A stretch of DNA of 64,000 nt, taken from contig JBFEPE010000002.1 in the NCBI GenBank assembly GCA_041550235.1, forward strand, positions 909-64,908, given 5' to 3'. Below are positions 2,579 through 63,650 of this stretch, piece after piece. The translations under genes were made by a program, and so were the position numbers. The DNA comes from Minisyncoccia bacterium (GTDB lineage Bacteria; Patescibacteriota; Minisyncoccia; UBA6257; JAAZHW01). The notes beneath the pieces were generated by a model, which was not told the DNA's origin, searched no databases, and saw only the letters and a list, made by a program, of their open reading frames with translations. The number at the start of each line of letters is the position of its first letter. The first letter of the stretch is position 1.

Positions 2579-3703
2579 ATGAGAATAAAACTATTTTTCA
2601 AAAAAGCAATTATGGAGATAATGAGTTGGGTGGTTGGAATTTGGGGGGTTTTGAGTAGAAAAAAATTTTCAAATAACCCTCAAAAAATAGCCATTCTTTT
2701 TTTGGATTTAGGAATAGGCGATTCAGTTATGCTTTCGCCCATTATCCAAAAAATTGCTGATATATTCAGCCAATCAAAGGTTTTCTTAATAACCCCAACA
2801 GAAGAAATAATCAATTTTAAAAATGTAGAATACCTTAAAGAGAATGAATTTAAAAAAATAAAAAAAGAATTTGATTTAATTATTTCACCCACTTTGTGCC
2901 TGTGGCACTTTCCTTATATTTTTTCTGCAAAAAATTGGATTGGATATTTTGCCAAAACAAAAATTCAGTCTAATTTTAACTTTTTAAAAAATAAAAAAAT
3001 TATTTATTATAAACCAATAGGAGGGCATTATATTATTAGAGGAATTAATTTAATAAAGGCAATAAACAAAGAGGCGGGGGATGAGATGGAAAGAGATTTT
3101 AATAACAAGAGTATTGAATATCCTCTCTTAATATCAAAAGAGCCATCGTATTTTAAAGATGAATTGGAGGGTAAAAAATATATTGCATTAGCACCTGTTT
3201 GTAAGTCTTTGGCAAAGCAATGGCCATTGATGAATTTTGTTGAGATTTGTCGTTATCTTTTTAAAAATAAGGGATTAGATAAAATTGTTTTGTTGGGCGA
3301 TGGCAGTCAATGGGACAAAAATTTTATTTCTAATATGATAAAAGAATTGAGTGATTTGCCACAGGGGGTAATACTTGATGTTGCTGGAAAGAATACACTC
3401 ACGGAAACAATATTTGTTATTAAAAATTCTGAAATTTTTGTCGGGCTTGATTCGGCGCCAGCTCATTTTGCATATTTAAATACCAAGAAGGTGCTGACTA
3501 TTTTTGTAAATATAAATCCTATGGAGATATCTCCGGTTGGAAATTTGAAAAATGTGGAATTTTTGTTTCCCGATGATGAGAGTTATATTTATGGTTATAG
3601 TGGGCTATTAGAAGGGGATGTTGAGTTTTCTCAGAAGTTATTAAAATCAATGCCTGTTCAAAAGGCAATAGATAAGATAAATAATTTATTTGACAAAAGA
3701 TAA
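2576..3703 (+). CDS. glycosyltransferase family 9 (ADP-heptose:LPS heptosyltransferase-like)
   Basis: GT9 hallmark VGLDSAPAHFAYLNTKKVLTIF (GxDSGxxHLAAA-like) and N-terminal IAILFLDLGIGDSVMLSPI. The N-terminal ~35 aa are atypical, so the start is uncertain. Confidence 0.6.
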   Translation: MMRIKLFFKKAIMEIMSWVVGIWGVLSRKKFSNNPQKIAILFLDLGIGDSVMLSPIIQKIADIFSQSKVFLITPTEEIINFKNVEYLKENEFKKIKKEFDLIISPTLCLWHFPYIFSAKNWIGYFAKTKIQSNFNFLKNKKIIYYKPIGGHYIIRGINLIKAINKEAGDEMERDFNNKSIEYPLLISKEPSYFKDELEGKKYIALAPVCKSLAKQWPLMNFVEICRYLFKNKGLDKIVLLGDGSQWDKNFISNMIKELSDLPQGVILDVAGKNTLTETIFVIKNSEIFVGLDSAPAHFAYLNTKKVLTIFVNINPMEISPVGNLKNVEFLFPDDESYIYGYSGLLEGDVEFSQKLLKSMPVQKAIDKINNLFDKR

Positions 3704-13614: not shown

Positions 13615-13900
13615 ATAGATTAAAGCATTCCCCCGTCCGCCAGAGGCGGATGTGCCACCTTCGGCGGGGGGCACCCCGCCTTCGCCAAGGCTTCGGCAGG
13701 GCAATGCCCGTCCAGCCAGAGGCTGGCCACCCCTCTATTAGAGGGCAGTATGTCCGCCTATGGCGGGGAATAAGATTTATATCTTAGGTGGTAGTGGATA
13801 TGAGGTTTGATTGTATATAAAACTATGAGTATATTGTTATAAATTAAAGACCCTCCCCCCGCCGAAGGCGGGGGGAGGGTCAAGAGGCTTAATATAACAA
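13615..13900. repeat. composite BIME-like block of GC hairpin modules between rplD and rplW
   Basis: Contains GTCCGCCAGAGGCGGATGTGCCACC, CACCCCGCCTTCGCCAAGGCTTCGGCAGGGCAATGCCCG, CCACCCCTCTATTAGAGGGCAGTATGTCCGCCTATGGCGGGGAATAAG, and CCCTCCCCCCGCCGAAGGCGGGGGGAGGG. Confidence 0.7.
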
Positions 13901-20766: not shown

Positions 20767-20985
20767 TTTTTATTCTCCTTATTTTAAATTTTTTACAACA
20801 GGCGGCAAAACATCTAATATCAATTTGGCATATATAAATCTATTTGTCAATAGATTGATTTTTTTTGTTTTATAATGGGAAGGTAATGAAGAAGAGGGGG
20901 AAATCCCGCCTTTGGCGGGGAAAACACCCCGTCTCGCATGAGGCGAGCCACCCCTCTATAAGAGGGGAATTATAATACAATTAAT

Positions 20986-30614: not shown

Positions 30615-30800
30615 AGGGCAAGGAGAAACACCCCGTCTGTTTTCGGCGGGACGTAATAAATTATTTCATAATTTAAACGTCCCAGCCACGTTGAAATTGC
30701 GAGGCAATTTTTTACGTGGCGAGGCGAAACCCGCCTTCGTCAACCCGCCTTCGCTAAAGCTACGGCAGGGCAAGGGACTTCGGCGAGGCGAAGAAAAATA
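30615..30800. repeat. composite GC-hairpin repeat block
   Basis: ACACCCCGTCTG, CCACGTTGAAATTGCGAGGCAATTTTTTACGTGGCGAGGCGAAACCCGCCTTCG, CTACGGCAGGGCAAGGGACTTCGGCGAGGCGAAG. Confidence 0.7.
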
Positions 30801-32442: not shown

Positions 32443-32523
32443 ATGTCGTTAAAATAAAAAAATTACCCCGCCTTCGCTAAAGCAGAATGTCCGCCTATGG
32501 CGGGCTATGGCGGGCAAAGAAAT

Positions 32524-32928: not shown

Positions 32929-33125
32929 GGTAATTATTTTGCGGATGTATTTAAAAATGGTAAAATAATTAAAATATGAAATTTGAATATTAAGACAGGA
33001 TGAAGAAATTCCCTCCCCCCGCCGTAGGCGGGGGGAGGGAATAGTAGATTCTTATCTATCCGAACAAAATATCTTGCGCAAATTAAAATCACTTATAAAA
33101 AATAATTATTAATAAAAAATAAAAT

Positions 33126-34769: not shown

Positions 34770-34908
34770 TTGGATATTTAGATTTGTGAATATATAAATA
34801 TATAAATATATAAGATGGTAATGATAAAGAAATCTATCTCCGCCCCGCCAAGGGCGGGGCGGAGATTTTAAGAATAGGTTTTGAATTAGAGGGTTGGTTT
34901 TTGGGGTA

Positions 34909-34936
34909 TTGACAAATTATTTAAATTGTGTATAAT
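34909..34936 (+). promoter_or_regulatory. near-consensus sigma70 promoter TTGACA-N16-TATAAT
   Basis: GGGGTATTGACAAATTATTTAAATTGTGTATAATGG. Confidence 0.6.
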
Positions 34937-34942
34937 GGATAG

Positions 34943-35215
34943 CAGATAATGAGTGGTTTGCTATAGGCAACACTCTTTCGCTATTAGCGAGATTAAATCA
35001 TAGCAGGGATAAGACCGGTCTTGGCGGGTCCCCGGCGAAAAAAAGATAGGCTATCTTCTTTTCGCTCAACAGCCAAGTCTCTCACGAAAAAAAGAATCCT
35101 GCGTGAGAGAGCATATCAGGACCAACTATTTACAATAATAGTTGAAGTAGTATGAAGAAGGGGCCTGGGCGGTCATTTGGTTTAATAAACCATTTGGTCT
35201 CTCAGGTGCCCATTT
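34943..35215 (+). ncRNA. candidate structured small RNA or long structured leader (about 270 nt), family not identified
   Basis: Follows a consensus promoter. Local stems: CTCTCACG..CGTGAGAG, GGTTTAATAAACC, GACCGGTC. Ends at a T-run (35211-35225). No ORF of 60 aa or more. Confidence 0.35.
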
Positions 35216-35247
35216 TTTATTTTAATAAAATATGATAAAGTAGGGGT

Positions 35248-38846: not shown

Positions 38847-38926
38847 TTTTTTAAATCATTGCATTGCCCCGCTCCGCCAGAGGCGGATGTGCCACTTTTG
38901 GCGGACAGGAATAACAATAAATAATT

Positions 38927-39457: not shown

Positions 39458-39630
39458 AATAAATTATAAATAATTTAAACATCCCAGCCATGTTGAAATT
39501 GCGAAGCAATTTTTTACATGGCGGGCGAAGTAAAAATATGAGTGAAAATATAGAATCATATAAATACACCGTTTTTTTGGCAGGCAGAGATTTTTTGCTC
39601 CAATGATTTAAATATGATAAAATTATTTAT

Positions 39631-41762: not shown

Positions 41763-41913
41763 ATAATATTTTCCATTGATTTTAAATTAAAATAATTTAA
41801 GATGTATAAATAATAATAAACTGAGGCATCCTCCCTCGCCCGTCAAAGGCGGATGTGCCACCTACGGCGAGGGGGGATGTGAAACTTTATAATTTAGCAA
41901 AATAAAAATAATA

Positions 41914-43230: not shown

Positions 43231-43299
43231 TAATAAAATTTTTTTATCATCTTGTTTGTTGTCCTTGTATCTCTCTCTGTCGTCCCCGTATTTTCCCTC

Positions 43300-43390
43300 C
43301 TTGTCACCCCCGCGAAGGCGGGGGTCTAAAAAGATGGCAAGTGGGTGGTGGTAGCGAGGCAGAGATTCCTGCCTTCGCAGGAATGACAAG
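43300..43390. repeat. about 91-bp MITE-like element with CTTGTCA/TGACAAG termini and two internal hairpins (CACCCCCGCGAAGGCGGGGGTCTAAAAA; CTGCCTTCGCAGG)
   Basis: Related copies at 57933-58008 and 63527-63623. Confidence 0.5.
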
Positions 43391-49334: not shown

Positions 49335-49462
49335 TAATAATTTTTGAAAATATCTCCCCTCGCCTACGGCGAGGGGAATAATCAAACCCGCCCGCCTGAG
49401 GCGGATGTGCCACCTTCGTCAGCCTTTGGCGGACTTCGGCGAGGCAAGGTAATATAAAAAAT

Positions 49463-50929: not shown

Positions 50930-51200
50930 ATAGAGATTAAATAGAAGCAAAAAAACAATACCCCCCCCGCCGCAGGCGGGGGGGGTATTGTCATTCCTGT
51001 CCGCCTGAGGCGGATTATACTCCGGCAGGAATCTAATTCTCCGCCGTAGGCGGACATTCTGCCCTCCATAGAGGGGTGGTTCGTCTCAGGCGGGACGGGC
51101 ATTGCCCTGCCGAAGCCCCTTGCCCTGCCGTAGCCCGCCGTAGGCGGACATTCTGCTTTAGCGAAGGCGGGTTGGCGAAGGCGGGGTGTTTCTCTAAAAT
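50930..51200. repeat. largest composite block of GC-hairpin modules in the window (at least 8 hairpins, several in reverse orientation)
   Basis: CCCCCCCGCCGCAGGCGGGGGGG, CCGCCTGAGGCGG, CCGCCGTAGGCGG, reverse complements of the CCACCCCTCTAT and ACACCCCG modules, CGAAGGCGGG x2. Confidence 0.7.
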
Positions 51201-51278: not shown

Positions 51279-51740
51279 TTATACATGCTTTTTGTCTATA
51301 AAAAACATGTTTGGCACATCCGCTCCTGGAAAAAAATCTCCAAAGATTTCTTTCTTTAAATTTTCGGCATCTAGCGAACTACCCCCCCATCCTAAAAAAA
51401 ATAATACCTTTTCTCCGAAGTGGGAATACTTTATGGACCCTCTTTCCTGTTGGGTAGGCATTTCCGTATAAGTCACAATCCTTTCATTATCATTATCACA
51501 GGTGACAATAAGAGTCGATGTTTTGTCAAGATCAACAGCAAATCGATATTTTTTAAAAAATGATTTGTCATTGTGATGAAAGGCACTTATAATCTCCCTT
51601 ACCCCTCTAACTACTTCTTCGTCGCTCATTGTGGGGAAAAGAAAATCCGCTAAACTAGGCGTAGGTGTTTCAACATAAATCTTGCCTTCTTTGTTCCATA
51701 TACGATCTAAGGCTTTTTGAAAAATATTTTTTTCTCCCAT
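51279..51740 (-). CDS. hypothetical 153-aa protein
   Basis: Start set at MGEKNIF, which has RBS AAGGAG 6 nt upstream. Confidence 0.5.
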   Translation of the reverse strand: MGEKNIFQKALDRIWNKEGKIYVETPTPSLADFLFPTMSDEEVVRGVREIISAFHHNDKSFFKKYRFAVDLDKTSTLIVTCDNDNERIVTYTEMPTQQERGSIKYSHFGEKVLFFLGWGGSSLDAENLKKEIFGDFFPGADVPNMFFIDKKHV

Positions 51741-51864
51741 GATTTTCTCCTTGTGATATTTGATTTTTAAACTACTCAATTATATTATAATATTATTATA
51801 ATTTGTCAATAATAAAAAAATCGCCCCCGAGAGAGCGACAACATCTTCCAGATGGAAGAAAGAA

Positions 51865-52020
51865 GAGTTAGCTTGTCATTTGACTACATGTTAGCACTTC
51901 TATTTTGTTTGTCAATATTAAAACTGTGGATAAGATTATGTGGATCCGGGGGGAATTCTCGCCAGAGGCGAGTCCGCCTTCGGCGGAGAACCCCCAAGAT
52001 GTTGGATGACAAGCCAACTC
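51865..52020. repeat. 156-bp element bounded by 15-bp inverted repeats GAGTTAGCTTGTCAT / ATGACAAGCCAACTC, containing a DnaA-box-like TGTGGATAA and nested GC hairpins
   Basis: Inverted repeats 14/15 complementary. Shares the CTTGTCA core with the MITE-like copies. Confidence 0.5.
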
Positions 52021-52083
52021 TCCCACCCGGCGGACCCAAATAATCATTAACTATTATAATTCAAAATTAATAATTAACAAAAT

Positions 52084-54682: not shown

Positions 54683-54724
54683 TTAACCCGCCTTCGTTGA
54701 AACTTCGGCGGGCGAAGCAGAAAT

Positions 54725-56537: not shown

Positions 56538-56864
56538 AATACGATTATATTATACTATTTTAAAAAATAATCAATATTTGCATCATAGTATTAATGAAAA
56601 AACTCCCCCCCGCCGAAGGTGGGGGGGGGGTTGGCTAAGTAATATATAAAAAATAATCAAATATATGTATTCGCCTTCCCCCTCGCCGTTGGCGAGGGGG
56701 AGGATCTGGCTAAGTAATATATAAAAAATAATCAAATAATAATTAATTAATAATGAATAAGATGATATTAATATCCCCCCGCCTTCGGCGGGGGGATATT
56801 GGAATAAATTATCTTATTTATTTAAACATTGATTTTATTTAATAAGTATGTATAATTCAAAAAT

Positions 56865-57323: not shown

Positions 57324-57671
57324 TTAATCTTCTTGCTTTTTCGTCGCAGGCACGCGATAGTCTATGGGTACTCCCTGGCTAAGAACATTTTTCATTGTCC
57401 CGAGGGTGAATGTTAGTAAATAAAATAGCTCGCGTGTGTTTATTCCACCTTCATCATTCGCCAAATTTTTTAGGCAAGGCATCTTTTCTTTAACCGGAAT
57501 ACATACATCCAAATACTTTTTACCATCAATATGCGGGGCTTCAAAGTGGATATTTGCCCCACCGAGATTGTATCCCCTTATGATACAAGATGCAATCATT
57601 GATGCTAGATCCCTAGGCTCTTTAAATTCAACCGTGATTTTATCATCTTCACTTTCTTTATGCTTATGCAT
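57324..57671 (-). CDS. hypothetical 115-aa protein (weak OsmC/Ohr-like Cys pattern) encoded antisense between rplN and rplX
   Basis: Start set at MHKHKESE, which has RBS AAAGGAGG. Motifs ASCIIRG and LDVCIPV. Confidence 0.45.
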   Translation of the reverse strand: MHKHKESEDDKITVEFKEPRDLASMIASCIIRGYNLGGANIHFEAPHIDGKKYLDVCIPVKEKMPCLKNLANDEGGINTRELFYLLTFTLGTMKNVLSQGVPIDYRVPATKKQED

Positions 57672-57744
57672 GGTAAAACCTCCTTTTATATTTCTAAAAT
57701 AATCATAACACATATTTAAATAAAATGTCAAGAGGCGACCCGCT

Positions 57745-58030
57745 TGAGGCGGGCGGGTTGCTGGAGTATTATTTGCCTCTGGTGGAGAGGAACACCCCGT
57801 CTCGCCAAGAGGCGAGCCACCCCTCTATTAGAGGGGAATAAAACAACTTGAAATTATTATTTAATTATTGTAATATAGGGTTTGTTTGGTAATCTTGCGA
57901 GTAAATTACTTTGAATTATGAAATGCCTCCCTCTTGTCACCCCCGCGAAGGCGGGGGTCTAAAAACCTCGCCAAAACGGAGATGCCCGCTTTCGCGGGCA
58001 TGACAAAGAAGAGACGGGAATGACAAAGAA
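57745..58030. repeat. composite GC-hairpin block including a MITE-like copy (57933-58008)
   Basis: CGACCCGCTTGAGGCGGGCGGGTTG, ACACCCCGTCTCGCCAAGAGGCGAGCCACCCCTCTATTAGAGGGG, CTTGTCACCCCCGCGAAGGCGGGGGTCTAAAAA, GATGCCCGCTTTCGCGGGCATGACAA. Confidence 0.7.
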
Positions 58031-59137: not shown

Positions 59138-59527
59138 ATGGATACAATAGCAGATTTATTAACACAAATAAGAAATGCATTAGCGGTTAAGAAACCGCTT
59201 ATTTCTGTTCCACACTCAAACTTCAAACAGAATTTAGCCGAATTATTAAGTCGCAGAGGATATTTGGGAAAGATTGAGAAAACAGGAAGGGGTGTTAAGA
59301 AAAATATTAAAATAGAATTAAATTATGACGAGAATGGAAGCCCAAGAATAGTAGAAATAAAGAAAATAAGCAAGCCCGGACAAAGAATATATTCTACTGC
59401 ATCAGAGATAAAGCCAGTAAAGTCGGGACTGGGTCATAGAATAATCTCTACTTCATCAGGATTAATGTTTGATTTTGAGGCAAGAAAGAAGGGATTAGGA
59501 GGCGAAGTAATCTGCGAAATATTTTAA
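59138..59527 (+). CDS. rpsH: 30S ribosomal protein S8
   Basis: MDTIADLLTQIRNALAVKKPLISVPHSNFK. Start trimmed from the listed ORF, which begins inside rpsZ. Confidence 0.9.
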   Translation: MDTIADLLTQIRNALAVKKPLISVPHSNFKQNLAELLSRRGYLGKIEKTGRGVKKNIKIELNYDENGSPRIVEIKKISKPGQRIYSTASEIKPVKSGLGHRIISTSSGLMFDFEARKKGLGGEVICEIF

Positions 59528-59540
59528 TATCTTTCTTTAA

Positions 59541-59581
59541 ATAAAATCCACCGCCAACCATTTTGGTTGGTTGGTGGCGGA
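59541..59581. repeat. perfect palindrome ATCCACCGCCAACCA-TTTTGG-TTGGTTGGTGGCGGAT (bidirectional terminator-like hairpin after rpsH)
   Basis: Read directly. Confidence 0.6.
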
Positions 59582-60122
59582 TAGGAAAGTGTTCTTCTTC
59601 TAGTCTCTTTTTTCAGATTTCTCCTTACAAGAGTTAGGAGGGGGGTTGGTCTCATTAAAAATATTATGTATATAGAGAGACAGAATAACGAGAAGTTAAC
59701 GGGAGCAATTATGGGCAAAATGTCTAATGGTAATCCAAATAAACCCAAGCATGCTATAATCGTTATTGAAAGCAATAAAATCGGTACCCTAAGCATAATA
59801 TAAACAGCAAGTAATAATAAAATTTTTTTTGCACTCATTTCTTTTCTCCTTATTATAATATTTTCTTACTTTTAAATTGTACTACTTTATCTATACTCAT
59901 TATAACATATTCATAAAAATTTGTCAAGGGGCTGAAAATGTGTCATTATATATCACGAAAATAAGGGTATATATTGAAATCTTTAAATAAATAATTAAAC
60001 TAATAAGATTATATTAAAATAGAGGGATTGCCTCCCCCTCGCAAAGCGAGGGGGAGGCAGGGCATTGATATAATTAATAAATAATTAAACTAATAATAAA
60101 ATAATTAATATCATAAAATACC

Positions 60123-60679: not shown

Positions 60680-60785
60680 ATTCTGCCCGCCCGCCTATGG
60701 CGGGGGGTGATAAGACCCACCTTCGTTAAAACTTCGGCGGGGCAAAACCCGCCTTCGTTAAAACTTCGGCGAGGCGAAGTAAAAA
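60680..60785. repeat. hairpin repeat block (CCGCCCGCCTATGGCGGGGGG; two copies of CCGCCTTCGTTAAAACTTCGGCG(G/A)GGC)
   Basis: Read directly between rplF and rplR. Confidence 0.7.
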
Positions 60786-61147: not shown

Positions 61148-61235
61148 TTTTTTAATAAAATCACCCGCCCGCCAATGGCGGGGGGGGGTTATAGACTTGT
61201 TTTTGTTTAAATATTTAGTAATATCTTTAATAAAT

Positions 61236-61814: not shown

Positions 61815-61907
61815 AGTATAAGACAAAAAATGAGAGAAACATGAGATGCCCCGCCTAAGGCGGGCAGGCTGCCGGAGTATTATCCGCCTCTGGCGGGGAA
61901 TATAAAT

Positions 61908-62330: not shown

Positions 62331-62665
62331 TTTTTATTATTTTGTGCTCTTTGATTATCTGTCTGATATTATTTTGATTATTTTATTTTTTGTTTTTTGT
62401 TTCTGTCATCTCTGCTTTTCTTTTGTCATACCTGTCCGTTAGAGGTGGCACATCCGCCTCAGGCGGGCGGATAGTACTTCGGCAGCTTGCCCGCCTATGG
62501 CGGGAATGACAATAAAAATTTATTGAAATAAAAAAATAGGACAGAGGTTGCTTTTTCTCAAAGCAACATGTCCAATAGACCTCTTGCAAAATAGCAATCA
62601 TCTTCCATTCTTTTAGGCAGAAACCTCCCAAATTTCAGAATATTATCTATGAATTAGATAACATT

Positions 62666-63058
62666 CTAAAGTTTTTGCATAGAGCAAAGACAAATCCACC
62701 AAACAAAAACATTAAGGATTAAAAATCCTGCCCTCGAAAACCCCACTACATCACTATTCTTGCTTTTGATTCCACGGATGCTTAATATCGATAAATAAAG
62801 AAAGAAGATGACACCGAATATAACATCGTCCATCATGAGTATTTTTTGAAAACCAAGTTCTAATATTAGTATTGTTGAAAAAATTGCCGTCAAAGAGAAT
62901 AGTATCACCATTTTATTTTCTTCTTTTCCCCACCATCCGCTTAATTTCTCTTTTTTTTCTTTCCACCAATTCCACCAATTTTTACTTGAAATCTTTAATT
63001 TATCAAAAGATGATAAATGTAGATATTTTTTGGAAAGTTCCTTATATGATAAACTCAT
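62666..63058 (-). CDS. hypothetical Trp-rich membrane protein (130 aa)
   Basis: ORF with a GAGAGG RBS, encoded antisense between rplO and secY. Confidence 0.4.
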   Translation of the reverse strand: MSLSYKELSKKYLHLSSFDKLKISSKNWWNWWKEKKEKLSGWWGKEENKMVILFSLTAIFSTILILELGFQKILMMDDVIFGVIFFLYLSILSIRGIKSKNSDVVGFSRAGFLILNVFVWWICLCSMQKL

Positions 63059-63484: not shown

Positions 63485-63650
63485 CGACAAAAAAACACCC
63501 CGTCCCGCATGAGGCGGACATGACACTCTCTTTGTCGCCCCCGCGAAGGCGGGGGTCTAAAAACAAAGCAAAGCGGAGATGCCTGCCTTCGCAGGCATGA
63601 CAATAAAAGTGGGAATGACAAGGGGGGGATAATTTATCTATTTCGTAATT
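63485..63650. repeat. composite GC-hairpin block including a MITE-like copy (63527-63623), immediately upstream of secY
   Basis: ACACCCCGTCCCGCATGAGGCGGACATGACA, CTTTGTCGCCCCCGCGAAGGCGGGGGTCTAAAAA, GATGCCTGCCTTCGCAGGCATGACAA, GGGAATGACAAGG. Confidence 0.7.

Follow-up and report, generated by a model that had tools for sequence, protein, structure and literature searches.

GC-rich hairpin blocks in a Minisyncoccia genome as probable nested REP-like repeats, with DUF559 as a candidate partner nuclease

The genomes of candidate-phyla bacteria rank among the smallest and most streamlined known, with a ribosomal protein operon that serves as a conserved marker block. In a 64,000-nt stretch of one such genome (Minisyncoccia bacterium, assembly GCA_041550235.1, contig JBFEPE010000002.1, positions 909 to 64,908; hereafter the window, whose own numbering is used throughout), short GC-rich blocks that fold into hairpins lie between the genes, which raises the question of what these blocks are and how they came to be there. 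A previous sequence-only reading of the window listed 14 of them, among them one at 50930-51200 (the focal block), and described them as mosaics organised like arrays of repetitive extragenic palindromes (REP) and bacterial interspersed mosaic elements (BIME). Our analysis indicates that a REP-like reading is essentially right, but that the family differs: the blocks are probably clusters of small REP-type palindromes, non-autonomous and of the CGTC/TGTC superfamily, that proliferated in this Paceibacteria lineage as selfish single-stranded DNA hairpins moved in trans.

The window has ~32% GC, genes mainly on the plus strand and a positive GC skew along its whole length. We found 18 GC-rich intergenic hairpin blocks in it, totaling 1,796 nt (2.8% of the window, or 16% when only intergenic DNA is counted), with a GC content of 58.5% versus 32.4% elsewhere and no overlap with any called gene. 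All 14 of the blocks listed earlier are present where they had been placed, as GC-rich intergenic islands carrying the listed modules in common, but three others had been overlooked (38866-38915, 41828-41878, and 43297-43389) and the one given as 57745-58030 is actually two. As had also been recognized, the blocks split ribosomal protein and translation factor genes that are normally contiguous, namely L4/L23, S2/EF-Ts, L14/L24, L6/L18, S5/L15, and L15/SecY. In two other Patescibacteria, the gaps along L6-L18-S5-L15-SecY measure 2-9 nt and contain no such islands, while the corresponding gaps in the window measure 119, 49, 93, and 1,338 nt. An obvious concern is that repeats of this kind might be assembly artefacts, and short-read contigs from the same strain (SRR29257546) do often break within the blocks, as expected of repeats. 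However, these independently assembled contigs are identical to the window base for base across the blocks (100% identity), and the blocks are therefore real sequence. We give equally little credence to the notion that they are guide-RNA arrays of a CRISPR- or TIGR-like type. TIGR arrays do occur in Patescibacteria and reportedly lack strong repeat conservation, but the blocks have no periodic repeat-spacer layout, are scattered singly among housekeeping genes, and none has a Cas or Tas gene beside it. Both the artefact and the guide-RNA explanations are thus already contradicted and hardly credible.

The modules from which the blocks are built occur far more often than in shuffled sequence, which was the source of all module expectations. 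The generic hairpin CCGCC-NNN-GGCGG is found 30 times in the window (0.01 expected), the 22-nt CAGAATGTCCGCCTAYGGCGGG (module M4) and CCGCCTTCG-N6-CTTCGGCG six times each (0.00 expected for both), GGCGGATGTGCCACCT five times (0.01 expected), and GGAGTATTATCCGCCTCNGGCGG three times (0.00 expected). There are also five exact or near-exact copies of ACACCCCGTC, four copies of CCACCCCTCTAT plus one reverse complement, three of GAAATTGCGARGCAATTT, and four of GGCAGGGCAAKG. The direct repeat families (D2-D13) and inverted pairs (I1-I18) found among the blocks bear out the earlier proposal that the mosaics draw upon a common set of short hairpin modules. Every block folds more stably than its shuffled versions (z -1.8 to -5.8), and opposite strands fold about equally stably (e.g. 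-83.3 vs -82.9 kcal/mol), which is a signature of DNA palindromes. In the seven copies of the CCGCCTTCG module (M5), the inner 3-bp stem is paired throughout, with two positions alternating between T-A and C-G and zero wobble pairs. The G-U share of minimum free energy folds of whole blocks was uninformative, as it was 10.6% compared to 10.9% in shuffles.

Comparison of module copies revealed how the mosaics are assembled. M5 exists in an empty form at 30750 (GCTAAAG^CTACGGC) and in a filled form at 32475 and 51155, in which GCTAAAG and CTAYGGC enclose CAGAATGTCCGCCTAYGGCGGG. Likewise, a longer double-hairpin unit (described below) reads AGAGGG^GAAT when intact, while at 1855 and 13746 the same 22-mer (CAGAATGTCCGCCTAYGGCGGG) sits between AGAGGG and GAAT; the unit at 1779-1863 has the 37-nt hairpin M2 inside its first stem (P1). 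Thus, the mosaics arise largely by the nesting of hairpins within hairpins, rather than by the juxtaposition of REPs and linkers. Modules inside one block all share the same orientation, with inverted pairs found only among the TGTC-tagged elements.

The focal block illustrates this architecture particularly well. It is bordered at 50954-50992 by the intrinsic terminator of the minus-strand gene 51279-51779, which consists of an 18-bp G/C stem followed by a minus-strand T-run. Next to the terminator is a TGTC-tagged REP at 50988-51030, which reads TTGTC-ATTCCTG...CAGGAAT-CTA on the plus strand (the palindrome TTGTCATTCCTG...CAGGAATC) and matches positions 3119-3157 of locus L003 with 92% identity; L003 and L005 are loci of a sister metagenome-assembled genome (MAG; GCA_041559835.1) that is 93-98% identical in shared genes. 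Nested in the loop of this REP is the minus-strand hairpin GGAGTATAATCCGCCTCAGGCGG (module M8, 51001-51023). The remaining components are all on the minus strand: a first copy of M4 at 51040-51061, a 22-nt TGTC-tagged mini-hairpin (CAGAATGTCCGCCTACGGCGGA); a remnant of the double-hairpin unit at 51062-51118 (CCCGTC-hairpin-ACCACCCCTCTATGGAGGG, preceded by GGCAGGGCAATGCCC); a full M5 at 51119-51176 (CCCGCCTTCGCTAAAGC...TACGGCAGGGCAAG, in its minus-strand reading CCGCCTTCGCTAAAGC...TACGGCAGGGCAAG) with a second M4 (51134-51155) in its loop; and, at 51177-51195, a ACACCCCGCC unit head joined to a truncated M5 (CCGCCTTCGCCAA), which forms the 5' end of the block on the minus strand. Inverted matches of 36-58 nt at 78-92% connect the focal block with four other blocks. 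One of these had been reported before as 51060-51120 being the reverse complement of 13700-13760, and we found its arms at 13689-13738 and 51068-51117 (50 nt, 88% complementary), within the unit remnant. The other partners are 32467-32519, which is 91% complementary to the full M5, 1850-1885, and 30703-30760. The focal block is consequently a ~200-nt insert in the 3' untranslated region (UTR) of the minus-strand gene, located between its stop codon and its own terminator, and is therefore 'reversed' solely with respect to the plus strand.

One component of the blocks, the double-hairpin unit, is also found in unrelated organisms, including an archaeon, as is M5. The unit has the arrangement ACACCCCGTC-hairpin-GCCACCCCTCT-NNN-AGAGGGGAAT, or more generally ACACCCCGYC, the P1 hairpin, and NCACCCCTCY-N3-RGAGGGGAAT, which corresponds to a CGTC tag, a variable stem (P1), a GCCA tail, and a CCCCTCT/AGAGGGG stem. 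A metagenome scan with GCCACCCCTCTATWAGAGGG, which did not demand ACACCCCGTC, yielded 20 loci of 30-55% GC, and almost all of them had ACACCCCGTC upstream as well; the two are parted by a hairpin of 3-18 bp with arbitrary sequence. In an alignment of 26 distinct units, all five P1 pairs covary, 91.9% of cells are paired, and none of the 344 cells shows a one-sided (G-T) change; 0/500 shuffles reached the covariation score of this alignment. Covariation confined to Watson-Crick pairs fits a structure that is recognised in DNA, or on both strands. A covariance model (R1) identified two intact units in the window, at 20919-20973 (66.5 bits) and 57787-57842 (61.4 bits), as well as five nested or truncated copies (38.5 to 11.8 bits). 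Among the loci with units, L257 (36% GC) contains five of them in both orientations together with a CCGCCTTCG module and a complete DUF559 domain, in-frame within a restriction-modification (R-M) gene of 1,000 codons. L270 has units in-frame within hsdS. A separate observation concerns six contigs (L248, L251, L259, L260, L261, and L266) that have a conserved stretch of ~200 nt in common. It begins with a promoter-like, AT-rich leader, which is followed by a unit whose stem is ATTCCGATGCTCGGAAT and by GAACTGATTGTATGAATTTTGGCTTCG...; the genes on either side are not the same in the six contigs, and the stretch may represent either a larger mobile element or a gene for a small RNA in which the unit is contained.

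A different explanation for such structured repeats is that the modules are primarily cis-acting RNA elements, i.e. stem-loops under selection in 5'UTRs, 3'UTRs, and the spacers between cistrons because they stabilise mRNA segments, set processing sites, or uncouple expression within operons, with their repetition reflecting reuse of a design. The placement of the blocks is in line with this. In the gaps between two plus-strand genes, 10/10 blocks have the plus orientation; blocks in divergent gaps sit on the side of the plus-strand gene, mostly 3' of promoter-like sites, and several blocks located 3' of such sites end 5-12 nt before start codons. The reversed blocks of the window and of sister loci L003 and L005 are all 3' of minus-strand genes, the focal block between stop codon and terminator being one of them, and solo units elsewhere are also mostly co-oriented with the downstream gene (~6-7 vs 1). 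Hence the earlier statement that modules occur in both orientations holds only relative to the plus strand; relative to the neighboring genes, co-orientation is almost universal. Nearly all window genes are also co-directional with replication, so this orientation bias can be assigned to the transcription or the replication strand alike. Strong structure is a feature of all blocks, and REPs of E. coli are known to stabilise upstream mRNA. On the other hand, the same modules precede genes as unrelated as those of L9, recA, SecY, the pilO neighbor, and EF-Ts, and they are gained and lost between strains that are 93-98% identical. The absence of wobble among the 344 unit cells and the similar folding of both strands are likewise not what an RNA element predicts, nor are the in-frame copies in open reading frames (ORFs) elsewhere, in both orientations, the inverted unit pairs around a nuclease gene, and the location of 57732-57842 between divergent promoters. 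No Rfam family matched either: at gathering thresholds, a search over the whole window returned tRNAs only, and permissive scans of two blocks returned sub-threshold terminator-like noise only. Overall, we consider a primary role at the RNA level to be unlikely, and any effect of the blocks upon mRNA would be secondary.

If the blocks are instead repeats of the REP kind, the next issue is which kind. The CGTC-tagged REP superfamily, which includes dRS3 of Neisseria and RPE-4/RPE-6 of Rickettsia, is characterized by an unpaired CGTC/TGTC/CCTC tag, stems of 8-9 bp starting from A-T, loops of 4-5 nt, and a CCA-type tail; head-to-head dimers predominate, clusters are rare, intragenic copies occur, and a transposase is lacking (Di Nocera, De Gregorio and Rocco 2013, PMC3733652). 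Much of this is mirrored in the window. An unpaired CGTC/TGTC tag marks one end of the unit (...CCCCGTC plus hairpin), of M4, of M6, and of five TGTC elements; the tail is 3 nt long, with (G)CCA after P1 nearly invariant in the 26 units and CTC/CTA ending the TGTC elements; and stems of 8 bp from A-T with 4-nt loops are present in five window elements, while several units of other taxa also have stems and loops of the published kind (e.g. CGTC-ATTCCGA...TCGGAAT). The five TGTC elements (TGTC, ATNCCYGC, 4-nt loop, GCRGGNAT, and CTC/CTA; 0.01 expected) make three head-to-head dimers, at 43297-43389, 57930-58025, and 63528-63603. In-frame intragenic copies at related loci and the lack of an adjoining transposase complete the likeness. 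Unlike the published family, clustering and nesting are the rule here, the unit has a second conserved hairpin, and the host is a Patescibacteria member of ~32% GC, a group we did not see named among the host phyla of that survey (PMC3733652).

A further counterpart exists for the TGTC elements. The Neisseria NTS repeat CGTCATTCCCGCGMAVGCGGGAATCYRG and the related SRM hairpins flank the gene of SsnA, a GIY-YIG nuclease specific for single strands, which recognises the hairpin by binding when the DNA is single-stranded and cleaves immediately 5' of it; Ssn proteins are single-domain GIY-YIG enzymes (cd10448), and SRM were searched by the pattern HGTCWYN(0-2)YYVSBRHN(0-5)WNVSBRGN(0-2)RNCYNB (Chenal et al. 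2025, PMC11893778). The window elements share the tag, the ATNCCYGC stem, the 4-nt loop, and the tail (compare TGTCATTCCTGCGAAGGCAGGAATCTC with CGTCATTCCCGCGMAVGCGGGAATCYRG), and the two systems are also alike in the enrichment of repeats in symbiont-type genomes and in having a nuclease gene between inverted repeats. The SRM pattern fits at 57978-58005 and 62482-62511 (2 vs 0.04 in shuffles), and three further TGTC elements miss it solely by a compensated change of C-G to T-A. One difference lies in the candidate partner of the double-hairpin unit, which is not a GIY-YIG protein but DUF559, a Vsr-like protein of the PD-(D/E)xK type.

The resemblance to E. coli REP/BIME with their RAYT partners (PMC3116915, PMC3337134, PMC8266576) is more general, in that both consist of short extragenic palindromes in mosaics, lie in operon spacers and 3'UTRs, and are probably recognised as single-stranded DNA hairpins by a dedicated nuclease. 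The REP/BIME organisation proposed earlier was accordingly sound as a description of REP-like clustered repeats, but does not extend to REP/BIME in the E. coli sense: Y and Z elements do not alternate regularly with defined linkers, the mosaics being formed by nesting, and the GTAG tag is present on 0/33 hairpin flanks, occurring within loops only. RAYT was set aside as the main partner, as a degraded RAYT-like gene lies beside the unit in one metagenome locus only and none was found in the window. In that locus (L249 1840-2360, and L263), the degraded RAYT/COG1943-like gene is directly 5' of two units and is interrupted by the GC-rich palindrome GGGGCGACCGGCCGGTCGCCCC. An identity as miniature inverted-repeat transposable elements was rejected, given that Pfam found no insertion sequence or transposase in the window and the boundaries have no consistent duplication. 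In the mitochondria of fungi and sponges, double-hairpin or repetitive hairpin elements (PMC2800124) likewise invade AT-rich compact genomes as GC-rich hairpins, insert into one another and in-frame into genes, and are polymorphic between strains. The GC clusters of yeast mitochondria and the palindromic elements of Rickettsia behave in the same way. All of these are unrelated to the blocks in sequence and host. We know of no tag-plus-nuclease relationship for the mitochondrial GC clusters and hairpin elements or for the Rickettsia palindromic elements.

The sister strain provides a direct view of turnover; look-ups of exact proteins for additional contigs of sister strains brought up the same strain again or no match. 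A 36-nt hairpin (ACCCCTGCCTTCGCAGGGGTGACAAG...) 5' of GAPDH is present in L003 and not in the window, and the region 3' of GAPDH is rearranged between the two strains; the S5-L15 spacer contains a module block in the window versus a minus-strand gene cassette in L005. Downstream of L15, both strains have a common TTGTC...GACAA frame, which holds three modules in the window and one hairpin in L005, where a ~24-nt direct repeat flanks the extra hairpin. Such a repeat is what might be expected if the blocks had grown in place without any mobile step, through slippage, duplication, and GC-biased hairpin repair in AT-rich spacers, with recombination between blocks homogenising the modules. Tandem duplications within blocks (a doubled CTATGGCGGG at 32495, and two copies of M5 starting from 60714 and 60746) and strictly Watson-Crick stems, as hairpin mismatch repair would yield, point in the same direction. 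However, growth in place does not account for identical modules of 22 nt and 16 nt lying up to 60 kb apart and in the contexts of different hosts, for the presence of the unit and M5 in unrelated organisms including an archaeon, or for inserts with discrete boundaries inside other modules. We therefore regard it as quite improbable as the general origin of the blocks.

A candidate for the mobilising enzyme of the double-hairpin unit emerged from the related loci. At five of them (L257, L264, L268, L270, and L271), an inverted pair of units surrounds a DUF559 gene at the DNA level. In L257 and L264, the unit upstream of the DUF559 domain is a reverse complement and the one downstream is in forward orientation. 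The domain is bracketed likewise in a Parcubacteria genome (L268), a Gallionella MAG of 55% GC whose stems are compensated to CCCCTCC/GGAGGGG (L270), and an Aenigmarchaeota MAG (L271). Across 120 homologues, units flank DUF559 in 74. Where an N-terminal extension of at least 12 residues exists, it encodes the reverse unit (NSPxxEGW..DGVV or FPSxRGV) in 42/61 cases, and C-terminal extensions encode the forward unit (NTPS..TPLxEGN or HPSxRGE) in 57/76, compared to 0.3 unit-encoding extensions expected from shuffles. The domain matches a solved 'endonuclease-like protein' (3HRL), and its cassette is found at three different positions in homologous R-M genes. We also observed that DUF559 cassettes and solo units lie in or between type I hsdS/hsdM, type III res/mod, and type IIG genes (L270, L271, L257/L264), which suggests a preference for R-M loci. 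In L271 (2990-3700, JAGHAB010000109.1), the cassette opens with a 97-nt sequence duplicated, at 91% identity, from the start of the downstream N6/N4 methyltransferase gene (its ribosome-binding site and 29 initial codons), such that DUF559 would be expressed as a fusion and the methyltransferase left intact. This looks like homing with co-converted flanks. We found no paper describing a function of DUF559, a role in mobile elements, or a link to these repeats. Taken to its furthest extent, DUF559 would be the dedicated partner of the CGTC-tagged double-hairpin repeat and form a third nuclease-REP pair, next to RAYT with GTAG REPs and Ssn with NTS. Its cassette of inverted unit, DUF559, and unit would be mobile or homing in bacteria and DPANN archaea and would insert in-frame into genes, notably those of R-M systems, and the units and blocks of the window would be its non-autonomous progeny. 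Vsr-like repair of T:G mismatches to C:G in extruded stems could then produce stems that are strictly Watson-Crick and GC-rich in AT-rich genomes. The host has pilM/N/O and is probably dependent upon DNA uptake, and in such an organism the arrays might additionally serve to mark incoming single-stranded DNA or to restrict it, in the manner of NTS/Ssn in Neisseria. We put this forward as a tentative proposal that may well prove incorrect, although the DUF559 partnership is the part of our findings most worth testing.

On this basis, the preferred reading of the blocks as selfish REP-like hairpins can be phrased as a putative mechanism. Hairpins would extrude on single-stranded DNA, either on the lagging-strand template or in transcription bubbles, and would be recognised and nicked by a nuclease that is specific for hairpin and tag and whose gene lies outside the window, with an Ssn-type GIY-YIG enzyme being the candidate for TGTC/NTS-like hairpins and Vsr-like DUF559 for the double-hairpin unit. 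Repair or recombination would then copy or move the hairpins. Only harmless copies would survive, i.e. those that lie in AT-rich spacers and run in the same direction as the flanking genes, and transcribed copies would probably act incidentally as 5' or 3' stem-loops of mRNA, as the E. coli REPs do, this not being the reason for their existence.

Several results weigh against this reading. The window contains no gene for DUF559, for a GIY-YIG nuclease (neither a motif or Pfam match nor an ssnA-like gene), or for a Y1/RAYT transposase (Y1 HUH; tblastn and Pfam); its units are thus solo copies and mobilisation in trans is inferred. The module boundaries lack a consistent duplication, and neither a target-site duplication nor a target could be defined. 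M2, M4, and M6-M8 were found in this strain pair only, with the unit and M5 alone occurring elsewhere. Most window hairpins have a 5-bp stem and a 3-nt loop, shorter than in the published CGTC families, and with a [CT]GTC tag on only 7/33 simple hairpins the fit to the CGTC/TGTC kind is partial. Just two elements fit the SRM pattern, and a scan of the window revealed none that differs from the Neisseria NTS by 3 mismatches or fewer. The association of DUF559 with the unit is a correlation, and units could gather beside this gene for other reasons. Lastly, such strong co-orientation with genes is unexpected for neutral selfish DNA and fits a role at the RNA level too.

Should the blocks be what we propose, selfish hairpin DNA separates genes such as L6/L18/S5/L15 and varies between strains, and the blocks matter for assembly, where they cause contig breaks, as well as for binning and synteny-based phylogenomics. 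Which enzyme mobilises this kind of repeat was an open question in 2013 (PMC3733652), and the Ssn nucleases gave part of the answer in 2025 (PMC11893778); DUF559 adds a concrete candidate for a second enzyme family. A hairpin-specific DUF559 would be a new REP-type partner, and might also offer a new DNA tool with specificity for both sequence and structure.

The other 17 blocks are all in the plus orientation except for that in the convergent gap after L15. The first (1784-1941) is in the L9 5'UTR and consists of a unit (38.5 bits) with the long hairpin M2 nested in P1, M4 at AGAGGG^GAAT, and M5, the last of which stops 5 nt ahead of the ATG. The L4/L23 block (13629-13775) has, in order, M6 (CGTC-tagged, GGCGGATGTGCCACC), M5, M7, the 3' part of a unit, and M4, while the recA 5'UTR block (20903-20970) pairs a CCCGCC hairpin with the intact unit at 20919-20973 (E 4e-13). 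After mraZ (30623-30800) there is a unit head with P1, an AT-loop hairpin, M2, a truncated M5, M5/M7, and an M5 tail; the block between mraW and the next gene (32464-32517) is an M5 with M4 nested in it. Two of the previously overlooked blocks have M6, at 38866-38915 with a GGAATAACAA end and at 41828-41878 with a compensated outer stem (CCCTCGCC/GGCGAGGG), and the third (43297-43389) is a head-to-head TGTC-REP dimer with outward tags, 8-bp stems, and 4-nt loops, similar to NTS/SRM. The M2 block (39470-39531) is a long hairpin with a compensatory GCCATG/CATGGC change. Between pilO and the next gene (49350-49450) are a G/C hairpin, M6, and an M5 tail, and a single M5 occupies the entire S2/EF-Ts spacer (54685-54718). 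The block at 57732-57842, with the promoter of L24 on one side and the divergent promoter of a minus-strand ORFan gene on the other, has a decayed M8 with G-T pairs in addition to its intact unit at 57787-57842, and is followed in the L24 5'UTR (57930-58025) by a head-to-head TGTC-REP dimer whose right arm fits the published SRM pattern. The L6/L18 block (60680-60783) has a CCGCC hairpin and two M5 copies in tandem, the S5/L15 block (61843-61900) a hairpin and M8, the block after L15 (62416-62512, no orientation assigned) a minus-strand M6 and the TGTC hairpin that fits the SRM pattern, and the SecY 5'UTR block (63495-63625) a unit head with P1 followed by a head-to-head TGTC-REP dimer. By Pfam, the genes neighboring the blocks encode L9, L4, L23, recA, mraZ, mraW, a beta-CASP RNase, a pseudouridine synthase, SecD, PilO, GAPDH, S2, EF-Ts, L14, L24, L6, L18, S5, L15, and SecY.

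Scans of viral contigs with 14-16-nt modules returned 120 matches each, all of them chance matches in GC-rich phages (median GC 0.61) with no second module nearby. The idea that the blocks are translated leaders was rejected, since the frame of the downstream gene is not consistently open: it is free of stops in 9/15 blocks, versus 6 and 5 in the other frames. The blocks before L18 (60647-61147) and L9 (1734-2387) are open in the downstream frame, for 47 and 71 codons, with stops in the other two; this is not significant across the 15 blocks. The open frame of the focal block has no words in common with any of 5.8 billion proteins, and the L9-leader frame matched, among 1.84 billion representatives, a single repetitive eukaryote-like NLR-type protein that was taken as spurious. 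Given the lack of credible protein matches, these particular mosaics are not called as ORFs elsewhere. Literature searches likewise revealed nothing relevant on the module sequences or on peptides encoded by the repeats.

Other unusual features accompany the blocks. Small ORFan genes are found on the minus strand of the window (51279-51779, 57324-57731, 59524-59838, and 62666-63058) and of L005 (760-1250), and such genes interrupt the ribosomal protein cluster, with one lying between L14 and L24 and another between L15 and SecY. They have near-consensus TTGACA/TATAAT promoters and their own terminators, and none had a Pfam or NCBIfam match. At S5/L15, the sister strain has a different cassette, with only the terminator 62530-62573 in common. 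Another set of hairpins, which are long, perfect and made of G/C (CCCCCCGCC-NNN-GGCGGGGGG), occurs at 17 window sites, mostly without a T-run (e.g. 13851-13879, 33011-33039, 61160-61190, and 56589-56800), and some are inside operons, such as at L18/S5; they may be terminators or another class within the same repeat ecosystem. Within 56589-56738, units composed of a hairpin and a promoter-like sequence are repeated in tandem with 91% identity. Finally, two GC-rich and apparently structured non-coding stretches, 34900-35235 and 51936-52040, had no Rfam match at E up to 0.1 and are candidates for unannotated small RNAs; in the first, ~300 nt separate a consensus promoter from a terminator.

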